A stretch of 64,000 bases of DNA from Candidatus Falkowbacteria bacterium. GTDB taxonomy: Bacteria > Patescibacteriota > Patescibacteriia > Patescibacteriales > UBA12465. The notes under the pieces were generated by a model. The model was not told the origin of the DNA, searched no databases, and saw nothing but the letters and a program-made list of their open reading frames with translations. Position numbers and translations under genes: made by a program. Below are positions 21,745 through 61,259 of this stretch, piece after piece (the stretch's first letter is position 1; the number at the start of each line of letters is the position of its first letter). Location: contig JBAXJX010000002.1 of NCBI GenBank assembly GCA_037137655.1, positions 293,730-357,729 on the forward strand, given 5' to 3'.

Positions 21745-21746
21745 GT

Positions 21747-23412: not shown

Positions 23413-23437
23413 GTTTGAGTAATTTATAGAAAGTTTA

Positions 23438-23468
23438 AACTTGAAGTCACAATTTGTGACCTCAAGTT
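23438..23468. repeat. 31-bp palindrome (copy 2, one mismatch), 4 nt beyond the recR stop
   Basis: AACTTGAAGTCACAA-T-TTGTGACCTCAAGTT. On the + strand it reads 'NLKSQFVTSSW' and then hits a stop, so it looks like a relic of an ORF6N motif or a dedicated repeat. Confidence 0.85.
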
Positions 23469-23472
23469 GGAT

Positions 23473-24081: not shown

Positions 24082-24096
24082 ACGGCGTAAGAATTA

Positions 24097-24372: not shown

Positions 24373-24426
24373 AAGTTTAAAATTATTATTTTTTAATTAT
24401 AGCAATAATTAGCTTTTTTCGCTAGT

Positions 24427-31727: not shown

Positions 31728-31744
31728 ATTTAAATATAAAAAAT

Positions 31745-32920: not shown

Positions 32921-32927
32921 TTTTTGT

Positions 32928-34403: not shown

Positions 34404-34411
34404 TTAATAAA

Positions 34412-37663: not shown

Positions 37664-37670
37664 TTAATTT

Positions 37671-38183: not shown

Positions 38184-38191
38184 ATTTTTTT

Positions 38192-38605: not shown

Positions 38606-38614
38606 TTTTTTAAA

Positions 38615-40342
38615 ATGGCTTTTAAAAAATCAGTTGGTTTGGATATTGCCGACCACACAATCGAGATCTTAGAACTATCGCGCGGTTTTGTTGGTGCCGT
38701 TACGGTGTCAGCTGCTGGGCGCATGTCGCTAAGCCCTGGCGTTGTATCTAATGGTCGGATTATAAATGCTGAAGCGCTTAAAGCGGCTTTACAAAAATTA
38801 TTTAGCCAAGCTAAGCCAGCAGCAATTGTCGCGGATGAAATTTGTTTCGGTTTACCCGATAGTCAAATCTACACCCGTGTTTTTGCGTTGCCACCACATC
38901 ACCCGAATGATTTAGAAAGTTTAGTTTTGCAGGAGGCGATAAATAGTATTCCGATTGATGAAGATAATTTAAATTACTCATATAAAGTTTTACACGAAAC
39001 ACCGGCCGGCACCGAAATTCTTTTGGCCGCGGCCGACGGTGAAGTGATAAAAGAATGGCACGATTTTTTCGTTGATTTGAAAATTAAAAATATTACTTTT
39101 GATCTTGAGCCATTAGCTTTGGCGCGCGGTTTGTTACTAAAAGATTCTGGTACCACCATGATTTTGGATATCGGTTCAGCCACGACCAGCTTGTTTATTT
39201 TTAGTGATGGTAATTTGGCTTATAGTCGATCTTTGATTGTGGCTGGCGATTACTTAACCAAGAAAATTTCACTTGATTTACAAATTAGTCTAGCTGAGGC
39301 AGAAGAGCAGAAAGTAAAATTTGGTTTGTCGTATCCAGATAATAAAGTTGTTAATCCAATCATGGATGTTTTAAAAGAAATTTCACTTAAAGCAAAAGAG
39401 TCAATTAATTATTTTGAAGAACGTAAAAAAACTAAAGTGACAAATTTTATTTTGGTTGGTGGCACGAGTCAAATGTTTGGATTGCTCGAATACGTAAAAG
39501 CCGAATTAAAACTCCCGGGCATTATCGGCCAGATGAAATTTGATGATAAAGTTATTCCATTGCTTTACGTGGAATCAGCTGGTTTAGCTTTGCGCCTCAT
39601 AGATGATAAATATAAAGATGATTTAAAAATATCTTTTACGCCCAATAAAGTTGCGCCAGCACTGTTACCACAAGAAGAGTTGGTAATTGCGGCTAGCGAA
39701 TCTTATGATAACGGTGAATCAAATGAAGAGGGAGCACAAATTTTAAAATCATTAACACCACCGCCAGTTAAAGAAGAAAAAGTTAAATCAAAATTATTAT
39801 TATTGGTAGATATTTTAATTGTGGGTGTTGTGCTTATTGGTTTGTCTTGGCAATATCGTACTTACAATGATAAAAAACAAGCGCTTGATTTACAAGCGAG
39901 TATTGTACAGCATATTAATTTGCAAACACTAAATACTAAAATTGAAGTCTCGACGATTGGTCTAGAGAATACTGCTGATCGTGTTCTAGGTCGTGTTGTT
40001 CGGGTAACCGTTGCTTCTAGCACTGATTTAGCTACAGCGGAAAATACCGCCAAAGATTTGTTGGCACCGCAGTTAAATTCTGGGGAAAAATATTTCCGTG
40101 AGCCAATTAATCGTGACACCTTGTTGAATAAATTAGAATTTCCGGTTATTTTTGAGTGGCTAGTTTATGATCAACGCAGTTATTTGGCGATTGTTAATAA
40201 ACGGCTTGAGTCAATTAATCCTAATAAAATCCCTGCGGATTTAAATGGGGCCGAGCTAATTGCGCTTAATAAAACTGCTTCGCAGGATGTTTTCTCCTTT
40301 GATTGTCGAATTAGTTTTTATGCTAATGAAACTTTAAAATAG
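38615..40342 (+). CDS. pilM: PilM actin-like ATPase fused to a TM helix and a PilN/PilO-position external domain
   Basis: 'VGLDIADHTIEILEL', 'ILDIGSATTSLFIF', 'ILVGGTSQMFGL' (PilM/FtsA-like). TM 'LLLLVDILIVGVVLIGLSW' near aa 395-413, then ~160 aa. Confidence 0.8.
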   Translation: MAFKKSVGLDIADHTIEILELSRGFVGAVTVSAAGRMSLSPGVVSNGRIINAEALKAALQKLFSQAKPAAIVADEICFGLPDSQIYTRVFALPPHHPNDLESLVLQEAINSIPIDEDNLNYSYKVLHETPAGTEILLAAADGEVIKEWHDFFVDLKIKNITFDLEPLALARGLLLKDSGTTMILDIGSATTSLFIFSDGNLAYSRSLIVAGDYLTKKISLDLQISLAEAEEQKVKFGLSYPDNKVVNPIMDVLKEISLKAKESINYFEERKKTKVTNFILVGGTSQMFGLLEYVKAELKLPGIIGQMKFDDKVIPLLYVESAGLALRLIDDKYKDDLKISFTPNKVAPALLPQEELVIAASESYDNGESNEEGAQILKSLTPPPVKEEKVKSKLLLLVDILIVGVVLIGLSWQYRTYNDKKQALDLQASIVQHINLQTLNTKIEVSTIGLENTADRVLGRVVRVTVASSTDLATAENTAKDLLAPQLNSGEKYFREPINRDTLLNKLEFPVIFEWLVYDQRSYLAIVNKRLESINPNKIPADLNGAELIALNKTASQDVFSFDCRISFYANETLK

Positions 40343-40356
40343 TTTATTTTAAGCGC

Positions 40357-40385
40357 TTGTAGAAAATATTGATATTTGTTATAAT
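40357..40385 (+). promoter_or_regulatory. sigma70-type promoter of pilin paralog 1
   Basis: TTGTAG (40357-40362), 17-nt spacer, TATAAT (40380-40385). About 70-nt leader to the ATG at 40462. Confidence 0.6.
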
Positions 40386-40461
40386 TAAGTTGTTAATAAA
40401 AAATTGGTCATGTTTTACTGGATTTTATATTATTATAAATCCGCGTGCCAAGAAAAATTTT

Positions 40462-40947
40462 ATGAAAAACAAAAAAGCTTTTACATTGATTGAGCTTTTG
40501 ATCGTTATTGCGATCATTGCCATCATTGCTGGAATCGTTTTTGTCGCCTTGAATCCCTTGGCAAGATTCGCCGCGGCCAGAACATCACGACGTTGGGCTG
40601 ACGCTTCAGCTGTATTAACCGCTATCAAGGTTAATCAAATTGATAATGGTGGTGCTTATTGTACCTCTATTACTGCCATGCAAAATGGTATCGTTTACAT
40701 GATTGGTACTAGTACTACTGGCGCTCAACAAACTTGTCAAACAACTATCGGTACTTCAAGTGCAGTTGATTTAACAGCTTTAGTTACTGGTGGTTACCTA
40801 GGTAGTGTTCCAGTAAGTCCAAGCGGAAATTACACTTACTACAATGGAAGCACAACTGGTTACACTTTAACAAAAGCAACTAGTGGTTTAATCACTATTA
40901 CTGCTTGTGATACTGAATCAACTCCTCAACCTTCAGTTTCTAGATAG
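40462..40947 (+). CDS. type IV pilin paralog 1
   Basis: 'MKNKKAFTLIELLIVIAIIAIIAGIVFVAL' (Ala at -1, Glu5). Shared motifs 'RRWADA', 'IKVNQIDNGG', 'GGYLGSVPVSPSG', C-terminal 'ACDTES'. The ORF-track TTG start at 40369 is rejected. Confidence 0.85.
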   Translation: MKNKKAFTLIELLIVIAIIAIIAGIVFVALNPLARFAAARTSRRWADASAVLTAIKVNQIDNGGAYCTSITAMQNGIVYMIGTSTTGAQQTCQTTIGTSSAVDLTALVTGGYLGSVPVSPSGNYTYYNGSTTGYTLTKATSGLITITACDTESTPQPSVSR

Positions 40948-40965
40948 TTTTTAACAAAACTATTT

Positions 40966-41466
40966 ATGTCTAAAAAGGATCGATCTGGTTTTACTTTGCT
41001 CGAGATATTAATCGTAATTGCGATAATTGCGATTGTTCTTGCCTTAGTTTATGCCACGGTCGATCCTTTTGCTCGTTTTAAGGCGGCGCGTGATGCGCGT
41101 CGCTGGTCGGATGCTGAGAATTTATTAAATGCCATTAAAGTTAATCAAGTTGACAATAGTGGTCATTATATTAGTGCCATCGAATCGCTACCAGCTGCTA
41201 CGGTCTTTATGATTGGGACCTCGACAAGTGCTTGTGATTCACAAAACGCTAACTGTCTTATTGATCCAGCTAGTTCAACGGCCTGTGTTGATTTGAGTCA
41301 GTTAATCTCCAGCGGTTATATTGGTGCTTTACCAGTTAGTCCGCGCGGTAATGGAACTTGGAATGCTAGTTTAAGTGGATATACTTTGCAGAAGAATGCT
41401 AATGGTAGTATGATTGTGCGCGCCTGTGAGAATGAGGGGGCTCAACCTGTTAGTTTGACTAGATAA
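40966..41466 (+). CDS. type IV pilin paralog 2
   Basis: 'KDRSGFTLLEILIVIAIIAIVLALVYA', 'RRWSDA', 'IKVNQVDNSG', 'SGYIGALPVSPRG', 'ACENEG'. Confidence 0.85.
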   Translation: MSKKDRSGFTLLEILIVIAIIAIVLALVYATVDPFARFKAARDARRWSDAENLLNAIKVNQVDNSGHYISAIESLPAATVFMIGTSTSACDSQNANCLIDPASSTACVDLSQLISSGYIGALPVSPRGNGTWNASLSGYTLQKNANGSMIVRACENEGAQPVSLTR

Positions 41467-41470
41467 TTTT

Positions 41471-41971
41471 ATGAAAAATAAACGAGGCTTTACTTTAATA
41501 GAACTTTTAATTGTGATTGCTATTATTGCAATTTTAGCATCAATTGTTTTTGTAGCTTTAAATCCGCTAACTCGTTTTCGTGATGCTCGTGATTCGCGTC
41601 GCTGGGCTGATGTCCATTCCGTGTTAAATGCTATTCGTATTAATCAAGTTGATCATAAAGGTGCCTTTTTAACTCCGGTCGCCTCTATGGAAACAGGGAC
41701 GGTTTACATGATAACTAATGCCGCAGTTTCCAGTGGTTGCGCTAACTACAATAATAATTGTAAGGTTGACGTTACGGGTGATAATTATTGTGTTAATTTG
41801 GGGCAACTTTTAATTGACGGTTATTTGGGTAATGTGCCGGTTAGTCCAAGTGCTGGGGGAACATGGAGTGATTATGCTACTGGCTATACTTTGGAAAAAG
41901 ACAGTAATGATATTTTAATTGTGCGCGCCTGTGAATCAGAGGATACTCCAGAAATAAAATTAGCTAGATAA
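41471..41971 (+). CDS. type IV pilin paralog 3
   Basis: 'MKNKRGFTLIELLIVIAIIAILASIVFVAL', 'RRWADV', 'IRINQVDHKG', 'DGYLGNVPVSPSA', 'ACESED'. Confidence 0.85.
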   Translation: MKNKRGFTLIELLIVIAIIAILASIVFVALNPLTRFRDARDSRRWADVHSVLNAIRINQVDHKGAFLTPVASMETGTVYMITNAAVSSGCANYNNNCKVDVTGDNYCVNLGQLLIDGYLGNVPVSPSAGGTWSDYATGYTLEKDSNDILIVRACESEDTPEIKLAR

Positions 41972-41984
41972 TAGAGTTTTTGAA

Positions 41985-42017
41985 AACACGACTTGTAGTA
42001 AGAAGTGTTTTTTTTTT
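41985..42017 (+). terminator. probable intrinsic terminator after pilin paralog 3
   Basis: Interrupted stem aacac..ctt/aag..gtgtt followed by a T10 run (42008-42017). Confidence 0.55.
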
Positions 42018-42043
42018 GACGAAATTAATAAATCTGATATAAT
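42016..42043 (+). promoter_or_regulatory. promoter of pilin paralog 4 (first of three tandem extended -10 boxes)
   Basis: TTGACG (42016-42021), 16-nt spacer, TGaTATAAT (42035-42043). Confidence 0.55.
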
Positions 42044-42075
42044 AAATTTGATATAATAAATTTGATATAATAATT
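42034..42075 (+). repeat. 3 x 14-bp tandem repeat (c/t)TGATATAATAA(A/T)T
   Basis: Units at 42034-42047, 42048-42061 and 42062-42075. Each contains an extended -10 consensus TGATATAAT. The last TATAAT ends 6 nt before the ATG at 42078. Confidence 0.9.
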
Positions 42076-42077
42076 TT

Positions 42078-42566
42078 ATGAAAAACAAAAAAGCCTTTAC
42101 CTTAATCGAGCTTTTGATCGTAATCGCGATTATTGCTATCGTTGCCGGAATCGTTTTTGTTGCCTTAAATCCATTGGCAAGATTCGTCACGGCCAGAACA
42201 TCACGACGCCTAGCTGACGCCTCAGCTGTTTTGACTGCTATTAAAGTTCATCAAATCGATAATGGCGGTGCTTATTGTACTTCAATCACTGCTTTGGCGA
42301 GTGGGGTGACTTATATGATTGGTACTTCAACTTCTGTAACAACTGGAACAGCGGCTTGTGCTTTAAGCAGCATTGGATCTACTACAGCTGTTGATTTGTC
42401 TGCCTTAATATCTGGTGGATACTTGGGTAATGTCCCGGTAAGTCCAAAGGGTAATAGTGCCTATTCTTTTGCTTTAACTGGATATACCTTGACCAAGAAT
42501 GCTAATGGTTTAATTACTATTGCTGCTTGTGATTCTGAGTCAGGCCAACTTTCAATTTCTCGTTAA
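42078..42566 (+). CDS. type IV pilin paralog 4 (closest to paralog 1)
   Basis: 'MKNKKAFTLIELLIVIAIIAIVAGIVFVAL', 'IKVHQIDNGGAYCTSITA', 'GGYLGNVPVSPKG', 'ACDSES'. Confidence 0.85.
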   Translation: MKNKKAFTLIELLIVIAIIAIVAGIVFVALNPLARFVTARTSRRLADASAVLTAIKVHQIDNGGAYCTSITALASGVTYMIGTSTSVTTGTAACALSSIGSTTAVDLSALISGGYLGNVPVSPKGNSAYSFALTGYTLTKNANGLITIAACDSESGQLSISR

Positions 42567-47474: not shown

Positions 47475-47584
47475 GTTATTGATTTTTAATGAATGTTTCT
47501 TTGTAATTTAACTCTAGCACGGATGTATTTTTATGTTAAGTGCTTTTTATAAAAAGTTTATACCGCCATTGGTTTAATGGTTGC

Positions 47585-48595
47585 ATGGCTAAAATAAAAA
47601 ATGGTAAAAAATCAATCTTCGGCGGTGAAATTGTGATTTATAAGACTAAAGACGGTAATCCTGATTTAATTGTGAAAATGGAGAAAGAGACTATTTGGTT
47701 AACGCAAGCGCAAATCGCCAATCTTTTTTGTGTTGAGAGAAGTGTAATTACGAAACATTTGCGTAATATTTTTAACGATTTTGAATTAAACGAAAAAAGC
47801 AATGTGCATTTTTTGCACATTGCTAATTCTGGTAAACCAGTTAAATTTTATAGCTTGGATGCTATTATCTCCGTCGGTTATCGTGTTAACTCTAGGCGTG
47901 CGACTCAATTCAGAATTTGGGCGACTAAAGTTTTGAAAAATTACATTATAAAAGGCTACGCAATTAATGAGAGAGGTTTAAGGGAAAACAAGAATTTAAG
48001 ATTGGACGAATTAGAGAAAACAATTAATTTTTTGCAAAGAATTATTAGCACCAAACAATTAAAATCAATTGAAGCCAACGGTTTATTAAAAGTGATAACT
48101 GATTATGCTAATTCTTGGATAGTTTTGCAAAAATATGACGAGAGAAAGTTAAAACTTGTAAGTCGTGGCAAGATTATTAATAATCTGAATTATGATTTTT
48201 CTAAAAGTGAAATAAATGAACTTAAGGCCAAGTTAATTAAGGAAAAACAGGCGACTGACATTTTTGGTTTGGAGCGGGAAGGTGCCTTGGAAATGATTAT
48301 TAAAAATTTAGCTCAAACTTTTGCGGGGAAAAATTTATATTCAAGCGTGGAAGAACGCGCCGCTCATTTATTATATTTTGTAATTAAAGATCATCCATTT
48401 GTTGACGGCAACAAGCGCATCGGTTCATTTTTGTTTATTTTGTTTTTGCTTAAGAATAACTATCTTTACAATAAAAAAGGCGAGAAGAAAATTAATGATA
48501 GCGCCTTAACGTCGTTGGCGCTGTTAATTGCCGAAAGTGACCCAAAGGAAAAGGACATGATGGTGGCGCTGATATCGAATTTGTTGATTAATTAA
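47585..48595 (+). CDS. RhuM-family N-terminal domain fused to a Fic/Doc (death-on-curing type) domain
   Basis: 'IWLTQAQIANLFCVERSVITKHLRNIF', 'KFYSLDAIISVGYRVNSRRATQFRIWATKVL' (RhuM-like). C-terminal 'HPFVDGNKRIGSFLF' matches the Doc-type H-x-F-x-D-G-N-K-R motif. Start at ATG 47585 rather than GTG 47540. Confidence 0.8.
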   Translation: MAKIKNGKKSIFGGEIVIYKTKDGNPDLIVKMEKETIWLTQAQIANLFCVERSVITKHLRNIFNDFELNEKSNVHFLHIANSGKPVKFYSLDAIISVGYRVNSRRATQFRIWATKVLKNYIIKGYAINERGLRENKNLRLDELEKTINFLQRIISTKQLKSIEANGLLKVITDYANSWIVLQKYDERKLKLVSRGKIINNLNYDFSKSEINELKAKLIKEKQATDIFGLEREGALEMIIKNLAQTFAGKNLYSSVEERAAHLLYFVIKDHPFVDGNKRIGSFLFILFLLKNNYLYNKKGEKKINDSALTSLALLIAESDPKEKDMMVALISNLLIN

Positions 48596-48685: not shown

Positions 48686-49447
48686 TTAAACTCCTATTTC
48701 TTTGTTGGCGCTAAATACTGGGTCATCTAAAGTAATTCTAGTGTTTATTGTGTTAGAAATTATTTTTTTTGGAAAACCAGTTAAAGCAATGATTTTATTC
48801 AGAAAATCAATAGTTGAAATTACTTGCTTAGAATATTCTTCGGTTAGCCGGTTTATTTCTTCTTGATTGGAAGCATTATGTTCTTGAAAAATTTCGATTA
48901 AATACGCTTCAATGCTTAGATAATCACGATCTTTGTATTTTTCGAGTAAAATTTCAAACACTTCCAACCAGTCTAATTCCGAATTTAATATTATTTCTAT
49001 TCTTGCTGGTATTTCTGCGCGTGCGTTTTCGCACTCGCCAATAATACTAGTTAAAATAACAAATAACACCCCATTATTATTGTTCAAGGTCCAGTGTAAT
49101 CGCTTAAGAGAGTATTCTTTTCCTTTGGCCCAAACTGGTTCGTGTTTAACAATAATTTTTTGCCCGTCTTTTGTAACTAATCCCGTGTAATCGTCGCAAG
49201 AGAGACTGTCATTATTTGTTGTTATATATCTATTTTTTACGACATATATGGCAATTATATTTACGGAAGCAAAAATCAAGACATAAATCATTATTGGATT
49301 TTTTATAATATCCATAAATTCTGGTTCATGATTTTCACCTCTACTGCAAAAAGCAATACCAAGCGTTGTGAAAAATAACAATAAAAAATTAACAAGTATT
49401 GGAAAGTTGCTAAAGAATAAAAAATAGCTTCTAATAAATTTTTTCAT
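48686..49447 (-). CDS. hypothetical membrane protein (2 N-terminal TM helices plus a ~170-aa soluble domain)
   Basis: 'FLFFSNFPILVNFLLLFFTTLGIAF' and 'IMIYVLIFASVNIIAIYVV'. No recognised domain. Confidence 0.7.
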   Translation of the reverse strand: MKKFIRSYFLFFSNFPILVNFLLLFFTTLGIAFCSRGENHEPEFMDIIKNPIMIYVLIFASVNIIAIYVVKNRYITTNNDSLSCDDYTGLVTKDGQKIIVKHEPVWAKGKEYSLKRLHWTLNNNNGVLFVILTSIIGECENARAEIPARIEIILNSELDWLEVFEILLEKYKDRDYLSIEAYLIEIFQEHNASNQEEINRLTEEYSKQVISTIDFLNKIIALTGFPKKIISNTINTRITLDDPVFSANKEIGV

Positions 49448-49534
49448 GATTTCTAGATTTTTGGTGAGACATTTATTTAGTTGTCAAACAACAAGTTTGA
49501 TTTTTTAAATTATCATTTTAACTAATGTTTGTCA

Positions 49535-49580
49535 AGGCGCCAAATAAAAAAGCTACTATTTTTGAAGATAGTAGCTTGGA
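49535..49580 (-). repeat. bipartite hairpin element, copy 3 (hairpin 2 intact, hairpin 1 reduced to 'ggcgcc')
   Basis: ggcgccaaataaaaaagctactat-ttttgaag-atagtagcttgg. Confidence 0.8.
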
Positions 49581-49608
49581 TTTTGTAAGTCTATATTTGC
49601 TTTTCAGT

Positions 49609-49824
49609 TTATTTAAGCCCTCTAAGTCTTATATTGCTCTTTATAGTGAGTGAAAAAGTTATAAAACTACAAGCAAAACTAATTACTGTTAGTATGGCAC
49701 CGAATAAGCTTGGCTTATCGATAAACAATAAACCACAAAAGATAAAACTACAAATACCGAGAATTGTGGTATATATGCCTTTGTTGCGATATCGTTTTTC
49801 TCTAAAATAATGTACATTTTTCAT
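49609..49824 (-). CDS. small 2-TM membrane protein (71 aa)
   Basis: Basic N-terminus 'FREKRYRNK', TM 'IYTTILGICSFIFCGLLFI' and 'LFGAILTVISFACSFITFSLTI'. Second gene of module A. Confidence 0.6.
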   Translation of the reverse strand: MKNVHYFREKRYRNKGIYTTILGICSFIFCGLLFIDKPSLFGAILTVISFACSFITFSLTIKSNIRLRGLK

Positions 49825-49850
49825 CGTTGCTAGATTTTTTGATTAAACAC

Positions 49851-50060
49851 TTATTCGCTTTTTGGTTCTTTTGGTTCTTTTGACCCATCTTTTGCTTTTA
49901 ATACTTCTTCTTTGATGGCATCAATTGCAAATGATGTTGCGAGTGAAGCAAGTCCACATGCCAGTAACGCGTAAAAAGTAGAATGTTTTGTTATGGCATT
50001 ATAGAGTGAGAAAATAGTGCCGGCAGCAGCAAAACTTGCTATGAATTTTAAAATGTTCAT
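49851..50060 (-). CDS. small 2-TM membrane protein with charged C-tail (69 aa), paralog of 50428..50646
   Basis: 'GLASLATSFAIDAIKEEV' aligns with 'GSTLATMGFTLDAIEKMI' of the paralog. Tail 'KAKDGSKEPKEPKSE' versus 'KPVETKRPKSE'. Confidence 0.65.
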   Translation of the reverse strand: MNILKFIASFAAAGTIFSLYNAITKHSTFYALLACGLASLATSFAIDAIKEEVLKAKDGSKEPKEPKSE

Positions 50061-50108
50061 AATGTATGGTTTTTTTGGTGAGTATTTATATGTGAAATAA
50101 CTGCCAAT

Positions 50109-50137
50109 AATGTATCATGAATACCTATGGTTGTCAA
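50109..50137 (-). promoter_or_regulatory. promoter of small-TM module A
   Basis: Minus strand: TTGACA (50137-50132), 17-nt spacer, TACATT (50114-50109). It directly abuts terminator copy 4. Confidence 0.6.
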
Positions 50138-50140
50138 ATA

Positions 50141-50180
50141 GAAAATAAAAAAGCTACTATTTTTGAAGATAGTAGCCTGG
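50141..50180 (-). repeat. bipartite hairpin element, copy 4 (hairpin 2 only)
   Basis: gaaaataaaaaagctactat-ttttgaag-atagtagcctgg. Confidence 0.8.
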
Positions 50181-50197
50181 TGTGTCGAGATTGTTTT

Positions 50198-50395
50198 TTA
50201 TTTGCCTTTAATAATTTTTTTTAGGCAGGTTAAGAATCCATACATGAAAACGCCTCCTCCGATTGGTGCAAATAAAACTGGTATCATGTGACTTATAATA
50301 GATAGATCTAGAACGTCTATTGTAAAGCACGTCAATGTTAGTATAAATGCTCCAAATGCTGTTGATGCTCCGATTATTGTTCCGTTAGGGTTCAT
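50198..50395 (-). CDS. small 2-TM membrane protein (65 aa)
   Basis: TM 'IIGASTAFGAFILTLTCFTIDVL' and 'MIPVLFAPIGGGVFMYGFLTCL'. Second gene of module B. Confidence 0.6.
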   Translation of the reverse strand: MNPNGTIIGASTAFGAFILTLTCFTIDVLDLSIISHMIPVLFAPIGGGVFMYGFLTCLKKIIKGK

Positions 50396-50427
50396 TTCTA
50401 TAAATTTTAGGTGAGTGTTAAAATTGT

Positions 50428-50646
50428 TTATTCGCTTTTTGGTCTTTTTGTTTCTACTGGTTTATTTGCGACAGCATTATTAATCATTTTTTCGATTGCA
50501 TCAAGAGTAAAGCCCATCGTTGCTAAAGTGCTGCCAGCGGAGCCTATCATGAAAAAAAAATTGTGATTTTCTATAAAAGCACAAAGGTTAACAATAATTA
50601 AGACGGCGCATAGTGTCGCCATGGAAATGGAAATTGAGATTCTCAT
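50428..50646 (-). CDS. small 2-TM membrane protein with charged C-tail (72 aa), paralog of 49851..50060
   Basis: See 49851..50060. The 3' ends share the DNA ttattcgctttttgg(t/c)c. Confidence 0.65.
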   Translation of the reverse strand: MRISISISMATLCAVLIIVNLCAFIENHNFFFMIGSAGSTLATMGFTLDAIEKMINNAVANKPVETKRPKSE

Positions 50647-50693
50647 GATATATGGTTTTTAGGTGAATATTAAAATGTGAAATAACTGCCGAT

Positions 50694-50722
50694 ATTGTAT
50701 CACGTTTTTAGTAAAAAGTCAA
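50694..50722 (-). promoter_or_regulatory. promoter of small-TM module B
   Basis: Minus strand: TTGACT (50722-50717), 17-nt spacer, TACAAT (50699-50694). The leader shares GGCAGTTATTTCACAT with module A. Confidence 0.6.
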
Positions 50723-50733
50723 TATGTGGCAAA

Positions 50734-50761
50734 ATAAAAAACCCAATCGTGATGATTGGGT
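50734..50761 (-). terminator. intrinsic terminator after the 50780..51541 gene
   Basis: 8-bp stem acccaatc/gattgggt, loop gtgat, with a T-run on the minus strand. Confidence 0.75.
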
Positions 50762-50779
50762 TTTAAGGAATAGTTTGTT

Positions 50780-51541
50780 TTATTGTTCTTGGAATTCTAC
50801 TCCGGCCGTAAAATATTCGGCAAAAGTTTCTTTGATTTCTGGGATTAATTCTTCCCAAGAAGAAGTTTTATCTTTGGTAAATTCAATTTGATAATTGCCG
50901 GGACGTTCTGCACAAATGGTGCCGTTAGCAACAAATAAGCCGTGAATTTTACACATTTTTCTGCCCAACTCCAAATGGCGAAAAGTCTCAAAGTTTACAA
51001 TGAATTTCATAAAATTTCCGTTGGGAGATTTTTCAATTATGATTTTTTGTTTATCACCAATTTCTTTGGTAACTTGGATAGACTCCGCACATAAATGACC
51101 AAAGATAAATTTCAAGATAGTGTCTAATAATTGATCAAAGTTGGTGGCTGGAGATTTCATAATATTTAATTCATGTGAACTGGAATAACCAATTTTTACC
51201 AGCTGTGGCACTTCCATCATTAGATCGTTAATGCTTGATTGGTTGAAATTGTGAGGCATTGAAGTTGCAAACATTAAGACGTCTTTAGCCTTGATGGAAT
51301 TTTTAGAAACGCGAATGGAAAATTTTAGATCTTTTAAACTGTGAAAAAGATTTTTATCTAAATCATCAACTTTGTAAGCGTCTAATGAAACCTCTGAAAC
51401 ATCTTTCAGTGCTTCACTTTTTTTATTTTTCTTTCCGTAAGAAAAAATCGCCATGACTCCGAACAATGCTCCCGCAAAAATAACCATGCCTAATCCGATG
51501 TAATAACCAGTCGTACTGGCTAAAATAATATTTATTACCAT
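50780..51541 (-). CDS. membrane-anchored protein with C-terminal Nfu_N-like domain (tentative)
   Basis: N-terminal TM 'YYIGLGMVIFAGALFGVMAIF'. The C-terminal 'IIIEKSPNGNFMKFIVN..IHGLFVANGTICAERPGNYQIEFTKDKTSSWEELIPEIKETFAEYF' resembles the Nfu/NifU N-terminal scaffold domain pattern. Confidence 0.6.
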   Translation of the reverse strand: MVINIILASTTGYYIGLGMVIFAGALFGVMAIFSYGKKNKKSEALKDVSEVSLDAYKVDDLDKNLFHSLKDLKFSIRVSKNSIKAKDVLMFATSMPHNFNQSSINDLMMEVPQLVKIGYSSSHELNIMKSPATNFDQLLDTILKFIFGHLCAESIQVTKEIGDKQKIIIEKSPNGNFMKFIVNFETFRHLELGRKMCKIHGLFVANGTICAERPGNYQIEFTKDKTSSWEELIPEIKETFAEYFTAGVEFQEQ

Positions 51542-51761: not shown

Positions 51762-54404
51762 TTATTTCACATTCAAAAGAATTTCATCTTTTAGACCAAG
51801 GTCAATCGTCACCTTATCGCCGTCTTTAATTTTGCCCTCCACAATATTCATCGCTAATTCATCTAAAATTAGAGTTTGAATCACGCGTTTAAGTGGTCGA
51901 GCACCATAAGTAATATCAAAGCCTTTTTCAGCTAAAAGTTTCTTCACCTTCTGACTAATCTTAATAGTCACGCTGCGGTTAAGTAGGCGACTAGCCACTT
52001 TAGCTAATTCCAATTCCACGATTTCACCCAAAGCTTCTTTGCTTAAATTCTTGAAGATTACAATTTCATCAATACGATTTAAGAATTCTAATTTGAAATA
52101 TTCTTTTAGAACTTTATCAATCTTTTCTTTCATCTCGCCTTCATGAATTTTTTGTTCTTCAGCCTCATTTTGACCGTCATTAAAACCAATAGAGAATTGT
52201 TTGATAACTTCATTGCCCAAATTAGAAGTCATGATGATAATAGTGTTTTTGAAGTTCACGATGCGACCCTTGGAATCGGTTAAGCGGCCATCATCTAAAA
52301 TCTGCAACAACATGTTGAAAGTTTCAGGATGAGCTTTTTCAATTTCATCAAAGAGCACGACACTATATGGACGACGACGAATTTTTTCGGTTAATTGTCC
52401 ACCTTCTTCATGACCGATGTAGCCCGGAGGGGAACCGATTAATTTAGCCACACTATGTTTTTCCATGAACTCACTCATATCCAAGCGGATCAAAGCGTTT
52501 TCATCATTAAACATAAAGTGCGCTAAAGATTTAGCCAGTTCTGTTTTACCGACACCGGTTGGACCAACGAACATGAAAGAACCAATCGGTTTTTTCTCTT
52601 CGTTAATACCAGCACGACTACGACGCAAAGCATTAGCAATGGCATGAATCGCTTCATCTTGGCCGATAACATATTTCTTTAATTCATCTTCGGCGTGGGC
52701 TAATTTCTTGATTTCATTTTCCATCATTTTTACGACCGGCACACCAGTCCAACGGGAAACAACTTTGGCGATATCTTCTTCGTCCACTTCTTCCTTCAAA
52801 ATGCGTTGGCCCTTTTTCTGAATCTTAATTAATTCTTCTTCTTGTTGTTTAATTTCTTTTTCTAATTTTGGAATTAAGTCGTAACGAATTTGGGCGACCT
52901 TAGTTAGGTCATCGCCGCGCCGTTGAATAATTTCGGAATTAGTTTTTAACTCTTCAATTTTCTTTTTATTGTCACGGATTTTACTGATAATACTTTTTTC
53001 GTTATTCCAATGTAATTCTAATTGACCAGCCTTTTCTTTTATTTCCGCTAATTGTTTACTGATAGTTTTTATTTTACTGGCGCTATTTTTATCTTTAGTG
53101 GCTCCGATACCAGCCTTGGCAATTTCCAGTCGTCGAGTTTCACGCTTTAAATTATCAAGTTCTTCGGGCATGGAATCAATTTCCATGCGCAATGAAGATG
53201 TGGCTTCATCCATTAAATCCACCGCCTTATCTGGCAAGAAACGATCTGTGATATAGCGACCAGAAAGTTGCGCCGCCGCAATTAAAGCATTGTCGGTAAT
53301 GCGAACGCCATGATGCACTTCATATTTTTCTTTGATGCCACGCAAAATCGCGACCGTGTCTTCGATGCTCGGTTCATTCACCATAATCGGTTGGAAGCGA
53401 CGTTCGAGCGCTTGATCCTTTTCAATATATTTTTGATATTCTTTGGTGGTGGTTGCGCCAATAGTTCTGATTTCACCGCGAGCCAAGGCTGGTTTTAACA
53501 TGTTAGAAGCATCCATTGAACCTTCGGATGATCCGGTACCAACAATGGTATGTAATTCGTCGATGAATAAAATTATTTTACCTTCTTGCGCTTGGACTTC
53601 TTTTAAAACTGCCTTTAATCTTTCTTCAAATTCACCACGGAATTTAGCACCAGCCACAAGTGCGCCCAAATCAAGTGATACCACTTCTTTGGACTTCAAC
53701 ATTTCTGGCACATCACCAGCGACAATGCGTTGGGCTAAACCTTCAACGATAGCAGTTTTTCCAGTTCCAGCTTCACCGATTAACACCGGATTATTTTTGG
53801 TCCGACGAAGAAGTACTTGCATGATGCGACGAATTTCACTATCACGACCGATAACCGGGTCAAGCTTTTCTTCGCGCGCCAAGGCAGTTAAATTGATAGT
53901 ATATTTTTCTAACACACGGAATTTAGTGTCTGGATCTGGGTCGGAAATTTTTTGGTTGCCGCGTAATTCTTTTAAGATATTTAAAACTTTATTATGTTCG
54001 ATCTTAAAGTTTAATAAGATTTTTTGCGCAGAAGAATTAACGCCGATTAAAGCGAGTAAAATGTGTTCGGTGGAAATATATTCATCACCCATACCATCGG
54101 CTTCTTTTTTGGCGCGTTCAAGTATCATGGCTACCTCATTAGTGCCTTGAACAGCTTGAACCGGGCCAATGGAAGGGGAGACCTTGCCTTTAGGTAATTT
54201 GTTGATGCCCTTTAGCACAAAATCCTCGATCATATCAGGATCGATTTTGGCCTTTTCTAGAATCGGGCGAATTAAGCTCTCGTTTTGTTGGAGTAGCGCT
54301 AAAAGTAAATGAAGCGCCTCAATGTATTCTTGCCCGAAATCTTGGGCGATAATTTGGGCGTTAATAATCGCTTCTTGCGATTTGCTGGTAAATTTGTTGA
54401 ACAT
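51762..54404 (-). CDS. clpB: ClpB-type AAA+ disaggregase (long M-domain) with a ClpC-like 'IGF' loop
   Basis: N-domain 'HLLLALLQQ'. D1 '[20 protein letters not shown]' and '[12 protein letters not shown]'. ~130-aa coiled-coil M-domain. D2 '[17 protein letters not shown]' and '[11 protein letters not shown]'. '[14 protein letters not shown]' lies between 'TSNLGNE' and 'FLNRIDE'. Confidence 0.9.
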
Positions 54405-56094: not shown

Positions 56095-56163
56095 TTTTGT
56101 CTCCCAAATATTTTGTGCTATTATATAGAGGTGAAAGACTTCAATCTTAAGATCAATTTTAAA

Positions 56164-56535
56164 ATGAATAAAAACAATTTTTTAATTTACGCTCCGAAAG
56201 TTTTGTTAATTATCGCTTGGGAAATAGTTTATTTTCCACTCTGGTGGTATAGCGCTGGCTTTGGGCGTATGGCTATGGGTGTTTTTGGAGCGATTAAGCG
56301 AAAGTTTATTAGCTTGGCGCTAGGTGTTTGGCTAAAAAATTTATTTGTCCCGATGTATGGTCAACATGATTTTGCCGGACGATGCATCAGTTTTTTTATG
56401 CGCTTCTTTCAGATTATTTTTCGGGGCATCGCCTTTTTGTTTTATACTTGTTTTTCCTTACTCCTTATTATTTTTTGGTTGATCTTGCCACCGCTAGTTA
56501 TTTATCTTATTTATCTGGAATTAAATTTAAAATAG
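56164..56535 (+). CDS. small polytopic membrane protein (123 aa), adjacent to and likely translationally coupled with the AAA+ gene
   Basis: 3-4 TM helices ('VLLIIAWEIVYFPLWWY', 'ISLALGVWLKNLFVP', 'IAFLFYTCFSLLLIIFWLILPPLVIYLIYL'). Its TAG at 56533-56535 is followed by the next gene's ATG at 56537. ATG 56164 is preferred to the TTG at 56113. Confidence 0.65.
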   Translation: MNKNNFLIYAPKVLLIIAWEIVYFPLWWYSAGFGRMAMGVFGAIKRKFISLALGVWLKNLFVPMYGQHDFAGRCISFFMRFFQIIFRGIAFLFYTCFSLLLIIFWLILPPLVIYLIYLELNLK

Positions 56536-56536: not shown

Positions 56537-59185
56537 ATGAAGATAAATTTTAAAAAAGTTGAAGATAAATTCGGCGCAGAACTTAACGGTGGATTTTTTT
56601 ATTGGAATGCGACCTTAAGTCAATCAGCTATATTTTTAAATCGCTTGCGTCGGCAGGTGAATAAACTAATTAATTTTAGCGCCGCGCTTGTTGGTGCGGC
56701 TGGTCTCTTGTCTTTAGCTTATTATTTTTATCAAAACTTCCAAACGATTAATAGTTTTTCTTTAGCGCAAATAAGTTTTTTAATCCAAACTCCAAGTGTT
56801 TGGATTTTGTTGTTTTTATTTTCAATTTTGGTTGATACTTTTTTGTTTTATCGTTTAACGGAAGAGGAATATCAATTGGGACGAATTAAAAATTTCTCTG
56901 TCGATGATTTTGGTGGTGATAAAATTGCAGTGGATCTTGGATTTAGTACTAATAGCTTGATTATTGTGGAAAATGCCTATGAGTTGGCCGAAAAATTAAA
57001 ACAAAGTGAGGTTAATCCCCGCCATTTATTTTGGGTACTTTTACGTAATAATAAAGTGCGCACTTTATTCTCACGTTTAAATGTTGATTATGCCGCCTTG
57101 GTTGATAAATTAAAGCGTCATCTTTTAGTGACTGATCCGGCGAGCGCCCAGAATTTAATTCTTTCCGAGAAAACCCAGGAAGTTTTAATTCAAGCCTATC
57201 TTAATGCTTACAATGACAAACGCCGCGCAGTTGATGTTTTGGATCTTTTAGATTTTTGTTATAACGCTGATGATCTTTTGGGAGAAATTTTATTTGACTG
57301 TGAAATTAGTCAAGAAAAATTAGTTAATGCCATTGCCTGGTTTCGTTCGAATGATAAAGTTATTATTGATCGTAAAATTTTCCGAGAGATGGCGCGCTTA
57401 AAACCGGGCAGCTCTATGGATCGCGCGTACACAGCGCTGTCGACACCAACTCTTGATTATTTTTCCGAGGATTTAACCTTGCGCGCTAAATATAATTATT
57501 TTGGTATTTGTTTAAATCGCGATAAAGAGATAAAAGATATTTTTGATACTTTTGCTAGTGGCTGTTTTGGCGCTTTGTTGGTTGGTTCAGTTGGGGTTGG
57601 TAAGCGAACAATCGTAGAGGGCATCGCGCAGTTAATGGTGAAAGAAGATGTGCCGGAAATTTTTAAAGACAAGCGTTTAGTGGAATTGGATGCGGCCCGA
57701 CTTATTGGCGGTGTGAGCGCGGCTGAGGCTGAAGAAAGATTAATGACAATTATCAGTGAGATTGTTCATGCTAAAAATGTGATTTTATTTGTTGATAATA
57801 TTTCCGCGATTACCGGTATTAGTTCTGGTGGCGACGGCAGCTTGGATTTGGCTCAAGTTTTTGCCAATCTCTTAACCCGTGGCAACGTCTATTGTTTAGC
57901 GACAATTAGTCCGGAGAATTATGCCGAATTTGTGGAAGGCAGTGCTTTAGGTAATGCTATGCCGAAAATTGAAGTGCGCGAACCGGATCACAATAGCGCT
58001 ATTCAAATGCTTCAAACTAAGGTGGCTTATTTTGAAAGTAAGTATGGTATTTATTTTGATTATGATGCTATTGCTAGTGTAGTAGAACTATCGGCGCGTT
58101 ACGTGAATGATAAATTTTTACCGGAAAAAGCCATTGATATTTTGCGCTTAGCGGCGGTTCGAGTGGCTAATATTTGTAAACATGATAAGAAACATTGTTT
58201 TTGTTCTCAAGACGACGTGGCTGATATTATTGCGGAGTTTACTGGTGTACCAGTAGCTCGAGTTGGAGAAAAAGAAACAGAAAAACTTTTGAATCTAGAG
58301 GCGAGTATTCATCAACGCATGATTGGTCAAGAAGAAGCGGTTAATGCTATCTCTGGTAGTTTGCGTCGGGCGCGGGCGGAAATGCGTGAAGGGAAGCGAC
58401 CAATTGCTAGTTTTTTATTTTTAGGACCAACCGGTGTGGGTAAAACAGAATTAGCCAAAACAGTCGCAGAGGTTTATTTTGGTGATGAAAAAAATATGGT
58501 TCGTTTGGATATGAGTGAATATCAAATGTCAGATAGCGTTGTGAAAATGATTGGTGATAGCGCCGGTAATTTAGGTTATTTAACTGAAGCCGTACGTCAT
58601 CATCCTTTTTCTCTAATCTTGTTTGATGAAATTGAAAAGGCTAATCCGGATGTTTTAAATTTATTTTTGCAATTAATGGATGATGGACGATTAACTGACG
58701 GCAGCGGCCGCACGATTGATTTTACTAATGCGATTATTGTGGCGACTTCTAATGCTGGAGCTTTATATATTGAAGAGGCGGTGGAGACGGGTGTGGATAT
58801 TAACATTATTAAACAAGAGATTATTGATAACCAGTTAAATAAGTTTATGCGCCCAGAACTTATTAATCGTTTTGACGGGGTGATAGTTTTTAAACCTTTA
58901 TCTTTTGCTAATGTGGTCGAAATTGCTAAATTGATGTTAAATAAGATTGGTCGGAGCTTGGAGGAAAAAGGAATTGTCTTTGCGCCGACTCAATCCGGGG
59001 TGGAGCGTTTGGCCCAACTAGGTTATGATCCAAAATTCGGTGCTCGCCCGCTTCGTCGTTTATTGCAAGATAGAATTGAAAATGAAGTGGCTAATTTATT
59101 GTTGGCTAAAAAAATTCGTCGCCGAGACACTATTATAGTTAATGATAAAGGAGAATTAGAGGTTGGCAAGGCGAATGAGTTGTAG
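56537..59185 (+). CDS. membrane-anchored ClpB/ClpC-like AAA+ protein with a degenerate first nucleotide-binding domain
   Basis: Two N-terminal TM helices (aa ~46-66 and ~85-105), and a Clp_N-like repeat 'NPRHLFWVLLRNNKVRTLFSRLNVD'. D1 Walker A is 'GSVGVGKRT' (Lys-Arg instead of Lys-Thr), Walker B is 'ILFVDNIS' (DN instead of DE), and the Arg-finger position is 'ALGNAMPK'. D2 is canonical: '[13 protein letters not shown]', '[10 protein letters not shown]', 'GARPLRR'. Confidence 0.85.
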   Translation: MKINFKKVEDKFGAELNGGFFYWNATLSQSAIFLNRLRRQVNKLINFSAALVGAAGLLSLAYYFYQNFQTINSFSLAQISFLIQTPSVWILLFLFSILVDTFLFYRLTEEEYQLGRIKNFSVDDFGGDKIAVDLGFSTNSLIIVENAYELAEKLKQSEVNPRHLFWVLLRNNKVRTLFSRLNVDYAALVDKLKRHLLVTDPASAQNLILSEKTQEVLIQAYLNAYNDKRRAVDVLDLLDFCYNADDLLGEILFDCEISQEKLVNAIAWFRSNDKVIIDRKIFREMARLKPGSSMDRAYTALSTPTLDYFSEDLTLRAKYNYFGICLNRDKEIKDIFDTFASGCFGALLVGSVGVGKRTIVEGIAQLMVKEDVPEIFKDKRLVELDAARLIGGVSAAEAEERLMTIISEIVHAKNVILFVDNISAITGISSGGDGSLDLAQVFANLLTRGNVYCLATISPENYAEFVEGSALGNAMPKIEVREPDHNSAIQMLQTKVAYFESKYGIYFDYDAIASVVELSARYVNDKFLPEKAIDILRLAAVRVANICKHDKKHCFCSQDDVADIIAEFTGVPVARVGEKETEKLLNLEASIHQRMIGQEEAVNAISGSLRRARAEMREGKRPIASFLFLGPTGVGKTELAKTVAEVYFGDEKNMVRLDMSEYQMSDSVVKMIGDSAGNLGYLTEAVRHHPFSLILFDEIEKANPDVLNLFLQLMDDGRLTDGSGRTIDFTNAIIVATSNAGALYIEEAVETGVDINIIKQEIIDNQLNKFMRPELINRFDGVIVFKPLSFANVVEIAKLMLNKIGRSLEEKGIVFAPTQSGVERLAQLGYDPKFGARPLRRLLQDRIENEVANLLLAKKIRRRDTIIVNDKGELEVGKANEL

Positions 59186-59280: not shown

Positions 59281-59625
59281 TTAACAACTCGGTGTTAATT
59301 GAAAACTTTCTTTTTGTTCGATCTTTGCCATAATTTTTTCTAGACCAATTTTATCTGGGCCAAAATCAATTATGCAATGTGTTCCTTTAATAGTCTCAAT
59401 TTTCTCGCCGTACAAGCTTGATAATATTTCCTCAACTTTGTTTTTTGTGAGTAATTTTGCTTTTACGATGTTTTGGTTGCCACGAACTAAAATTGACTCG
59501 ATTACGCCTTCTTTGTCGTAATCGTGTAGATAGTCCATCACCTCTTTAATGATTAATAATGATGTTTCAATTGCGATCACTGTCGCATTGTCTCCTTGTA
59601 CTAGAATAATTGAGCTGAATAACAT
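59281..59625 (-). CDS. hypothetical protein (114 aa)
   Basis: ORF followed by terminator module copy 5. No motif recognised. Confidence 0.55.
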   Translation of the reverse strand: MLFSSIILVQGDNATVIAIETSLLIIKEVMDYLHDYDKEGVIESILVRGNQNIVKAKLLTKNKVEEILSSLYGEKIETIKGTHCIIDFGPDKIGLEKIMAKIEQKESFQLTPSC

Positions 59626-59714: not shown

Positions 59715-61259
59715 ATGTCTATATATTTCTTTATTTTATCATTATTACTGGCTTTTATCTTTACGCTCGTTGTTAAAATGGTGGCGATAAAGTTTAAAAT
59801 CGTTGATAATCCTGATAATAAACGCAAGATTCATCTTAAACCAATTCCGCTTTTGGGCGGTTTGGCTGTCTTTTTGGCTTTTTTTACAACAATTTTTATT
59901 GGTCATGACTATATTTTGTCCGGCAATTTAACTTGGCACCACTGGTTAGGGGTATTAGTTGGGGCAATTTTTTTAATGATTGGCGGTTTTTTGGACGATA
60001 AATACAATTTTAAACCAACTTGGCAGCTAATTTGGCCAGTTTTAGCTATTATTTCAGTAATTGTTGGCGGCGTGGAGATTCAAAAGATTAGTAATCCTTT
60101 TGGCAATCATTTATTATTACCGGGTTTTGTTAGTTCATTATTTATTGCTGTGTGGTTAATGGGTATGATGTATACCACCAAACTCTTAGATGGCGTTGAT
60201 GGTTTGGTTAGTGGTATCACGGCAATCGCCGCTTTGGTAATTTTTCTCTTTACGGCCACAACTAAATATTTACAACCCGATATTTCTTTCGCCGCTTTAG
60301 TTTTGGCGGGCGCAGCTCTGGGATTTTTAATTTTAAACTTTAATCCGGCCAAGATATTTCTCGGGGAAGGCGGTTCGCTGTTTATGGGTTATATTTTGGG
60401 TGTTTTGGCGATTATCTCAGGTGCTAAAATTGCCATCGCGCTCTTGGTGATGGGAATTCCAATTTTGGACGTCGCCTGGACAATTATCCGTCGTTTGGTT
60501 CATGGTAAAAATCCGTTTCGTTTTGCCGACCGGGAACATCTTCATCATAAATTGCTGGATTTGGGCTTAGGGCCAAAGAAAACGGTGCTAGTTTTTTATG
60601 CTTTGTCGATAATTTTTGGACTTAGTGGCTTATTTTTACAAAGTCAGGGTAAGGCTTGGGCGTTACTAGCCTTGTTTGTTATTATGATTGCTTTGGTTGT
60701 TTTTTTAAACACCATCAAAAAGAAACCACGTTTATTGCTGCACACTTGCTGTGCGCCATGCGCTGCTTATACGGTAGTGGAAGTTTTACGCCAGAAATAT
60801 GATGTGACATTGTATTTTTTAAATTCAAATATCGATAGCCAAGAAGAATATGATCGTCGCTTGGATTCGGTCCGGATTTTAACTGATAAGTATCATTTAC
60901 CGCTCATTGTGGCGCCCTATGATAGGTCTGGATGGTTAAAGGAGGCGGCTGGCTTGGAAAGCGAACCAGAAGGTGGTCGTCGTTGTTTATCGTGTTATGC
61001 AGCTCGCTTGCGCCAAACCGCCGTTTTAGCCCAGCTTAAGCGGTTTGATATTTTTGGCACCAGCCTAACTCTTAGTCCGTTTAAAAATAGTCGCTTAATT
61101 TTGGATATGGAGAAGAAGATTGGGGAGGAATTAGGGATGGATTTTTTGGATTATGATTTTAAAGAGAATGATGGCATAAAAAAATCACAAGACTTTGCCA
61201 AGACTCTGGGTGTTTATCGCCAAAAATATTGTGGTTGTGAGTTTAGTAAGAAAAAATAA
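59715..61259 (+). CDS. fusion protein: GT4-family polyprenyl-phosphate HexNAc-1-phosphate transferase (WecA/MraY-like) plus epoxyqueuosine reductase QueH (DUF208)
   Basis: N-terminal ~335 aa polytopic with 'HLKPIPLLGGLAVF', 'GFLDDKYNF', 'KLLDGVDGLVSG', 'NFNPAKIFLGEGGSLFMGY', 'DREHLHH'. C-terminal ~175 aa with 'LLLHTCCAPCAAY', 'YFLNSNIDSQEEYDRRL', 'EPEGGRRCLSCYAARL', 'LTLSPFKN', 'YRQKYCGCEFS'. Confidence 0.85.
   Translation: MSIYFFILSLLLAFIFTLVVKMVAIKFKIVDNPDNKRKIHLKPIPLLGGLAVFLAFFTTIFIGHDYILSGNLTWHHWLGVLVGAIFLMIGGFLDDKYNFKPTWQLIWPVLAIISVIVGGVEIQKISNPFGNHLLLPGFVSSLFIAVWLMGMMYTTKLLDGVDGLVSGITAIAALVIFLFTATTKYLQPDISFAALVLAGAALGFLILNFNPAKIFLGEGGSLFMGYILGVLAIISGAKIAIALLVMGIPILDVAWTIIRRLVHGKNPFRFADREHLHHKLLDLGLGPKKTVLVFYALSIIFGLSGLFLQSQGKAWALLALFVIMIALVVFLNTIKKKPRLLLHTCCAPCAAYTVVEVLRQKYDVTLYFLNSNIDSQEEYDRRLDSVRILTDKYHLPLIVAPYDRSGWLKEAAGLESEPEGGRRCLSCYAARLRQTAVLAQLKRFDIFGTSLTLSPFKNSRLILDMEKKIGEELGMDFLDYDFKENDGIKKSQDFAKTLGVYRQKYCGCEFSKKK

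Follow-up and report, generated by a model that had tools for sequence, protein, structure and literature searches.

Why should an enzyme of the kind that primes cell-envelope glycans and an enzyme of the kind that completes a transfer RNA (tRNA) modification be encoded as a single protein? The question is raised by a gene in a 64,000-nucleotide stretch of a Candidatus Falkowbacteria genome (assembly GCA_037137655.1, contig JBAXJX010000002.1, positions 293,730 to 357,729, hereafter the window), in which a WecA/TagO-like polyprenyl-phosphate sugar-1-phosphate transferase runs in frame into a complete QueH, the family of the epoxyqueuosine reductases. Our assessment, to which we assign a probability of roughly 60%, is that the product is a genuine and old bifunctional membrane protein, whose two activities are most likely independent of each other and share one anchored polypeptide.

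The fusion gene (59715..61259, + strand) is an uninterrupted open reading frame (ORF) that starts with an ATG at 59715, ends with a TAA at 61257-61259 and encodes 514 amino acids (aa) with no internal stops. Pfam recognizes Glycos_transf_4 (PF00953) at aa 77-235 (103.6 bits, cut-off 27; E 1.4e-29) and QueH (PF02677) at aa 340-513, the latter spanning positions 1-174 of the 175-position model (194.9 bits, cut-off 23.5; E 1.6e-57). Pfam, NCBIfam, hydropathy and fold match delimit the N-terminal transferase domain (aa 1-333, 59715..60713, +), while Pfam, a PDB sequence match and the fold delimit the C-terminal domain, a full-length QueH (DUF208) fold (aa 340-514, 60732..61256, +). Between the final membrane helix and the first QueH strand (LLLHTCCAPC) stands a short basic linker, IKKKPR (aa 334-339, 60714..60731, +), of which KKKPR begins at nt 60717; family members have linkers of 5-21 residues (mode 9) with a net positive charge. 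An earlier note, made from the sequence alone, had described a WecA/MraY-type transferase fused in frame to a full-length QueH, and the single ORF, the Pfam hits and the fold matches given below bear this out. The cysteine motifs listed in it lie where it placed them (CCAPC at aa 345-349, RCLSCY at aa 423-428 and YCGCEFS at aa 505-511), and its view that the fusion has no linker is essentially right, with only those ~6 basic residues in between.

Six contigs encode the identical 514-aa protein, among them ENA ERZ4224321, Logan SRR12676970 and SRR12676969, and a 965,192-bp NCBI contig, and NCBI lists it under MEI7452480.1 as 'epoxyqueuosine reductase QueH [Candidatus Falkowbacteria bacterium]'. 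Both Pfam domains are present in 120 out of its 120 best database homologs (56-100% identity). In a one-genome-per-species collection, 406 stretches encode a relative, and the best 80 loci, with 52-63% identity to the query, were examined. The fused ORF is intact in 77 of these, split into adjacent genes in two and frameshifted in one, where the frameshift (L082, 10001-10240) falls within the transferase part and could be an assembly error or the mark of a pseudogene. In the two split species (L035, 9980-11590, and L052, 679-2268) the halves are separate adjacent genes, parted by an in-frame TAA with an ATG two codons on, exactly at the domain boundary (...SKIN(stop)FIMENIKPKLLLQICCAPC and ...AKIS(stop)LFMPRLLLHICCAPC), and therefore each half can stand alone.

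A neighbor-joining tree of 233 QueH domains places all transferase-linked QueH sequences in one clade of 88 tips, with L035 and L052 as sisters nested 12 nodes deep inside it. This tree carries no bootstrap values and is star-like in its deep branches, and only two of its features were used: that the fused clade is monophyletic and that the split pair is nested within it. Since the split pair lies deep within the fused clade, its state is best read as a secondary fission; thus the fusion appears to have arisen once, with one sub-lineage later reverting to two genes. Mean pairwise identity across 83 fused sequences is 67% in the transferase half and 56% in the QueH half, which indicates that both halves are under constraint. 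The records of these relatives are named Candidatus Falkowbacteria or 'Patescibacteria group', and many are named 'uncultured Gammaproteobacteria', which we take as placeholders. Overall, the fusion is old, stably inherited and common to a clade of Falkowbacteria-type Patescibacteria, and assembly error is ruled out. Among the origins that the earlier note had considered, a genuine fusion is the one supported by the 77 intact relatives and the single QueH clade; the same two results refute a recent loss of a stop codon or a fusion unique to this assembly. Adjacent separate genes, the other arrangement it had envisaged for relatives, occur among the 80 loci only in the split pair.

The QueH half closely resembles the studied enzyme of Thermotoga maritima. 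Its sequence matches T. maritima QueH in the PDB at E 5e-23, and the modeled domain (AlphaFold2 model of the protein built from 83 homologs; predicted local distance difference test, pLDDT, 88.7; predicted template-modeling score, pTM, 0.71) matches the structure 7LC5 in Foldseek with a probability of 1.00, a target-normalized template-modeling (TM) score of 0.89 and a root-mean-square deviation of 1.5 Å over 175 columns. By alignment, C345-C346-A-P-C349 (60747..60761, +) corresponds to T. maritima C9, C10 and D13, C424-x-x-C427 (60984..60995, +) to C87 and C90, and Y501-R-Q503-K-Y-C506-G-C508 (61215..61238, +) to Y164...C169 and C171. We take the six conserved cysteines of QueH (CCxxC/D, CxxC, CxC) to hold a [4Fe-4S] cluster and an adjacent iron. 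The third metal-site position, Asp13 in T. maritima, is Cys in 94% of standalone QueH, and C345, C346, C349, C424, C427, C506 and C508 are all invariant in the 83 fused sequences.

Conservation beyond the metal ligands was assessed by setting the 83 fused domains against standalone QueH, namely 93 cluster representatives, the enzyme of T. maritima and the copy at a more distant Patescibacteria locus (L098). The positions that are at least 92% conserved in standalone QueH (C345, C346, C349, N370, N372, E378, R382, E419, G421, R423, C424, C427, L451, S454, P455, K457, Y501, R502, Q503, C506, G507 and C508) are all invariant in the fused set, except for R502 and G507, which stand at 93%. The net charge of the fused QueH domain averages +6.7. 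Compared with the T. maritima enzyme, the domain is alike in its full length, its fold, its six cysteines and the other residues at least 92% conserved in standalone QueH, but differs in being tethered by ~6 residues to an 11-helix membrane protein, in having Cys in place of Asp13 and in a relaxed DFKK motif, which is weighed below. QueG, which catalyzes the same reaction QueH is known for (PMC5372724), is cobalamin-dependent, with an unrelated fold and unrelated cofactors, and is not encoded in the window.

For the transferase half, hydropathy and the positive-inside pattern predict 11 membrane helices, with the N terminus outside, the C terminus inside and helix 11 ending at ~aa 333. The K/R-rich loops with DD, DGxDGL, FLGEGGS and DREHLHH all fall on one predicted side, taken as the cytoplasm, so that this topology would place every transferase catalytic loop plus QueH in the cytoplasm. 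Because an Fe-S (iron-sulfur) domain must be cytoplasmic, the predicted N-out/C-in topology is self-consistent, and it agrees with the tethering of QueH at the cytoplasmic face of the membrane proposed in the earlier note. WecA ranks first in NCBIfam for aa 6-336, with 126.8 bits, below the TIGR02380 equivalog cut-off of 326.05, while the MraY profile TIGR00445 reaches 70.4 bits, below its equivalog cut-off of 192.05. On profile scores the N-terminal half is thus classed as WecA/TagO-like, neither WecA proper nor MraY, an assignment that does not imply a substrate. The former label 'WecA/MraY-type' holds for the superfamily, but not for MraY, and the protein falls short of the WecA cut-off too.

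The modeled N-terminal domain matches MraY (target-normalized TM 0.65-0.77) and human DPAGT1 in Foldseek, and MraY structures are its best structural matches. The likeness to MraY lies in the superfamily and the overall fold. MraY has 10 helices, whereas the 11 helices here lead to a cytoplasmic C terminus, and the loop-1 motif here is of the WecA type. E. coli WecA, 28% identical, has the motifs RKxH...P..GG, DD, DGxDGL, FxGxxGS and DRxH[IL]HH and the 11-helix N-out/C-in arrangement in common with the fused protein. By alignment, the first cytoplasmic-loop motif, RKIHLKPIPLLGG (59823..59861, +), also occurs in E. coli WecA and does not vary within the fused family; D94-D95 (59994..59999, +) corresponds to WecA D90/D91, D159-G-V-D162-G-L (60189..60206, +) to D156/D159, and DREHLHH (60528..60548, +), the fifth cytoplasmic-loop motif, to DRQHIHH. 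We take WecA D90/D91 to be the Mg2+-site aspartates, and the catalytic roles of the other WecA-equivalent residues are presumably those given in the literature. FLGEGGS (60357..60377, +) stands for WecA FMGDAGS, with a family-invariant E218 in place of Asp; besides the Asp of the FMGD motif and the score below the WecA cut-off, the C-terminal QueH, present only here, sets the two proteins apart. Invariant throughout the fused family are R37-K38-x-H40...P45..G48-G49, D94-D95, D159-x-x-D162-G-L, G217-x-x-G220-S221 and D272-R-x-H275-x-H277, and H278 of the H275-L-H-H278 loop-5 motif is at least 90% conserved.

In a bifunctional protein of this build, the N-terminal domain would move a sugar-1-phosphate from a uridine diphosphate (UDP)-sugar onto polyprenyl phosphate at the inner face of the membrane, a step that would prime an envelope glycan. 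The QueH domain would still bind a [4Fe-4S] cluster and a second iron, and would reduce epoxyqueuosine to queuosine at position 34 of tRNA-Asp, -Asn, -His and -Tyr. The tether is attached where strand 1 begins, and the cluster-binding CC lies where that strand ends, so that the cluster end should face away from the membrane; judging from the fold topology, the QueH active site would be left open to tRNA.

How such a protein could have come about is suggested by gene order. Upstream of the fusion gene lie a small membrane protein (56113-56535, +; upstream in 73 out of 80 relatives) and a membrane-anchored ClpB-like AAA+ protein of 882 aa with an N-terminal membrane region (56537-59185, +; upstream in 78 out of 80). 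This tightly packed pair adjoins tgt in more distant Patescibacteria (L098 and L132/L207). A metagenome scan with the AT-rich DMFDCV motif yielded 80 Tgt loci, and comparison with the Falkowbacteria loci left two informative ones, L098 and L132. In L098, tgt is followed 19 nt on by a standalone queH and then by the small-membrane-protein/ClpB-like pair; this QueH is 55% identical to the QueH domain of the L018 fusion protein, and the Tgt groups with Minisyncoccia and Paceibacteria. The gene order in L132, which was extended as L207, is mraZ, rsmH, ..., tgt, small membrane protein, ClpB-like, DUF559, transferase (364 aa, unfused) and rplU. In a further set of loci (L211-213) the order is mraZ, rsmH, x, tgt, an unfused 360-aa transferase 22 nt on, a helix-turn-helix (HTH) gene, rplU, ..., recR, ybaB and dnaB. 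The unfused transferases of L207 and L211-213 are orthologs of the fused one, with 47-50% identity along the whole length; they carry the same signature motifs and end just past helix 11. The rplU...recR-ybaB-dnaB block of the window (21385-25833) is syntenic with L211 13093-16912, and its DnaB is 59% identical to that of L211. In the window, the slot upstream of rplU holds a 500-aa pilin-like gene (19786-21288) and murA (18382-19671, -), and 21747-22367 (ORF6N-like) and 22441-23364 are inserted between rplU and recR.

The tgt-queH, tgt-transferase and transferase-QueH links thus all occur in Patescibacteria, and the simplest history is therefore a fusion within one ancestral neighborhood. The fusion probably arose inside an old tgt/queH/transferase neighborhood, by a single event between genes of the conserved order tgt / queH / small membrane protein / ClpB-like / transferase. 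It may have persisted because it was harmless or brought some slight advantage, for instance through co-expression, stability or the saving of a gene in a ~1-Mb genome. The earlier statement that the two activities have no known functional link is softened at the genomic level, where tgt adjoins the unfused transferase or a standalone queH in sister lineages, though no biochemical rationale for a link is known.

Several results weigh against the continued synthesis of queuosine that our reading assumes. The only known substrate of QueH is made by Tgt and QueA (PMC5372724), and when the 64-kb window and 83 related loci (1.5 Mb) were searched by tblastn with the E. coli proteins as queries, neither gene turned up; these loci sample essentially one syntenic region. 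Neither of the two syntenic places yields it: tgt is not in the slot upstream of the small-membrane-protein/ClpB-like pair, and neither tgt nor a transferase lies upstream of the L21-RecR-YbaB-DnaB block of the window. Tgt is common in Patescibacteria, and a weaker point is that none of ~240 Patescibacteria Tgt clusters is labeled Falkowbacteria or lies on a contig matching a fusion-bearing one in length; these clusters are the best 120 matches for each of two Patescibacteria Tgt queries, and a Falkowbacteria Tgt could rank just below them. A Tgt (P0364) on a 626,281-bp contig was considered as co-occurring with the L071 fusion on a 626,278-bp contig and was rejected, with GC contents of 35% and 44% and no exact proteins shared. 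An Rfam scan of the window found three tRNAs only and no preQ1 riboswitch. As to whether there is a queuosine pathway at all, a question also posed in the earlier note, neither tgt nor queA came to light in the window and the 83 syntenic loci, which sample essentially one genomic region, nor did a Falkowbacteria Tgt among the matches listed.

A further contrary result lies in the QueH domain itself. The DFKK motif, whose site is K483-E484 (61161..61166, +; aligned to T. maritima R146-K147), is relaxed in the transferase-fused clade alone, where the consensus is DFQA. The K/K pair is kept in 87% of standalone, ~75% of VanZ-fused and ~85% of otherwise-fused QueH, but in only 22% and 11% of transferase-fused QueH. 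Nevertheless, the balance tips towards a QueH domain that still serves queuosine synthesis, with tgt relocated, because its core residues stay invariant through divergence down to 42% identity and because tgt adjoins the transferase in the lineage immediately outside the clade. Tgt and QueA would then be encoded elsewhere in the genome. The window also holds miaB and miaA, adjacent at 2788-4998 (+) and identified by eye from their translations, and therefore the genome keeps other elaborate anticodon-loop modifications.

What a fusion to QueH says about function depends on how often QueH is fused. Queried with only the QueH domain, a set of 1.84 billion cluster representatives gave 4081 relatives, and we surveyed the partners in the nearest 150. 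Among these, 96 are standalone and three are transferase-fused (one a partial protein), while in 18 QueH is preceded by an N-terminal VanZ-like membrane domain (2-4 helices), the commonest partner. The diverse VanZ-like/QueH family is represented here by P0122, P0126, P0133 and 15 others, and is also found at locus L217 (10001-11020). Like the fused protein studied here, its members have the N terminus of QueH tethered to a membrane domain, and they are among the closest relatives of the studied QueH; they differ in that the partner is a small VanZ-like domain and not a WecA-family enzyme, and in that DFKK is kept. Further partners are uracil-DNA glycosylase, RNase HII, 5-formyltetrahydrofolate (5-formyl-THF) cyclo-ligase, alanine racemase, Sua5/TsaC, Amidase_3, a pyridoxal phosphate (PLP) enzyme, radical SAM domains, CCA-adding enzyme, HAD hydrolase and methyltransferase. 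Since QueH joins so many unrelated proteins, fusion alone is weak evidence of a functional link or a shared pathway. Membrane tethering of QueH, via the transferase and via VanZ-like domains, is recurrent in uncultured bacteria.

Triple fusions were observed in seven of the 80 loci (L016, L027, L031, L051, L056, L062 and L080, with ORFs of 763-808 aa) and in P0052, P0111 and P0128. In order, they consist of a WecA-like transferase, QueH, an extra membrane helix, bacterial TSP3 repeats and an extracytoplasmic YkuD L,D-transpeptidase, so that QueH stands between two cell-envelope enzymes.

Together, the missing tgt and the lost KK motif keep alive the alternative of a repurposed QueH, also raised in the earlier note, in which Tgt and QueA were lost or never kept and the tethered Fe-S domain acts on something other than tRNA. 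Its target may be an epoxide, either a small molecule or lipid-linked, or a related substrate at the membrane face, or the domain may be a redox- or iron-sensing module that tunes the transferase. Such a change of role would account for the lack of tgt in both syntenic positions and in all Falkowbacteria sequence examined, for the lack of a Falkowbacteria-labeled Tgt among the ~240 clusters listed and for the loss of DFKK specifically in the transferase-fused clade, and it is in line with the repeated joining of QueH to envelope proteins (VanZ-like, YkuD in 7/80 loci, Amidase_3 and alanine racemase). However, the binding pocket is usually reshaped when an enzyme changes its substrate, whereas all other family-wide conserved QueH residues, well beyond the metal ligands, are invariant here, and the domain keeps its net positive charge. 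The two species in which the halves run as separate proteins are a poor fit with an obligate intramolecular regulator, and tgt beside the transferase in the lineage just outside the clade means that the pathway was present shortly before the fusion. The evidence for an absence of tgt is itself weak, since the sampled flanks are syntenic and the Tgt clusters are the best 120 matches per search. We consider repurposing unlikely, yet with a chance that deserves to be taken seriously.

A bolder proposition is that the queuosine pathway is gone and that an intact, tethered QueH has been kept over hundreds of species' divergence for an Fe-S redox reaction or sensing at the membrane face, linked to glycan priming; its milder counterpart is that the transferase and the late queuosine enzymes are a real membrane-associated module. 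We give this only a small chance.

A smaller chance still goes to true functional coupling in the Rosetta-stone sense, in which the transferase and the late queuosine enzymes would belong to one membrane-associated module, with tRNA maturation perhaps sited where a salvaged precursor enters, or glycan priming perhaps tied to the status of queuosine-modified tRNA. The co-existence of tgt-queH (L098), tgt-transferase (L211-213, and within the same cluster in L207) and the transferase-QueH fusion is what such a module would leave behind, and the VanZ-like family, second and more diverse (18 of the 150 nearest representatives), likewise tethers QueH to the membrane. But these links may be inherited synteny and not selected adjacency: three other Patescibacteria tgt contexts (L205, L214 and L215) have neither a transferase nor QueH beside tgt, and the VanZ-QueH locus L217 has no tgt beside QueH. 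The many unrelated partners of QueH and the want of a biochemical rationale also speak against coupling, and the split species show that the covalent linkage is dispensable.

There is next to no chance that the gene is an assembly or annotation artefact, or a recent pseudogene-like read-through in one genome, for although adjacent separate genes do occur in L035 and L052, that pair is nested inside the fused clade, the identical ORF recurs in independent assemblies, species-level relatives keep it intact at 52-63% identity and both halves are under purifying selection.

Returning to the bifunctional membrane protein, both of its halves are known families and the architecture is already in public databases, where the names given to fused proteins are one-sided, either 'QueH' or 'GlcNAc-1-P transferase' (N-acetylglucosamine-1-phosphate transferase) and never both. 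The result is thus mainly an annotation correction, together with a clean example of a stable fusion in reduced genomes. A full-text search of the accessible literature on QueH, DUF208, PF02677 and COG1636 gave no mention of a transferase-QueH fusion, of VanZ-QueH or of queuosine in Patescibacteria, the nearest being a report of bacterial-type QueA/QueH/Tgt clusters in DPANN archaea; the recurrent membrane tethering of QueH is worth recording. The transferase subfamily tied to tgt by gene order in sister lineages offers a testable comparative-genomics hypothesis. If the clade does lack Tgt and QueA, this would be the first conserved QueH without a known substrate, pointing to a second activity of an unusual Fe-S enzyme.

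Some other features of the window were noted. Between the ClpB-like and fusion genes lies a 114-aa ORF (59281-59625, -) with a promoter at 59709-59681 (-) that matches the sigma-70 consensus in 12 out of 12 positions (TTGACA-17-TATAAT) and with its own terminator at 59256-59234 (-). It has no homolog in the 80 related loci, and looks like a lineage-specific insertion that parts the fusion gene from its usual upstream partners. A second, canonical ClpB is encoded at 51762-54404 (-). About 1.3 kb at 49447-50780 is without an ORF of at least 100 aa, and gene calls made on the same genome give only three small genes of 65-72 aa there (L001 137-932). A large type IV pilus/pseudopilin cluster occupies 30036-42566 (+); it encodes an ATPase, a platform protein, a 1083-aa protein made of two similar halves and many prepilin-like proteins, whose N terminus is of the GFTLIELLIV type. 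A 351-aa ORF at 47540-48595 (+) carries the Fic/Doc-type motif HPFVDGNKR and, like the ORF at 21747-22367, may belong to a mobile or toxin-antitoxin-like element.

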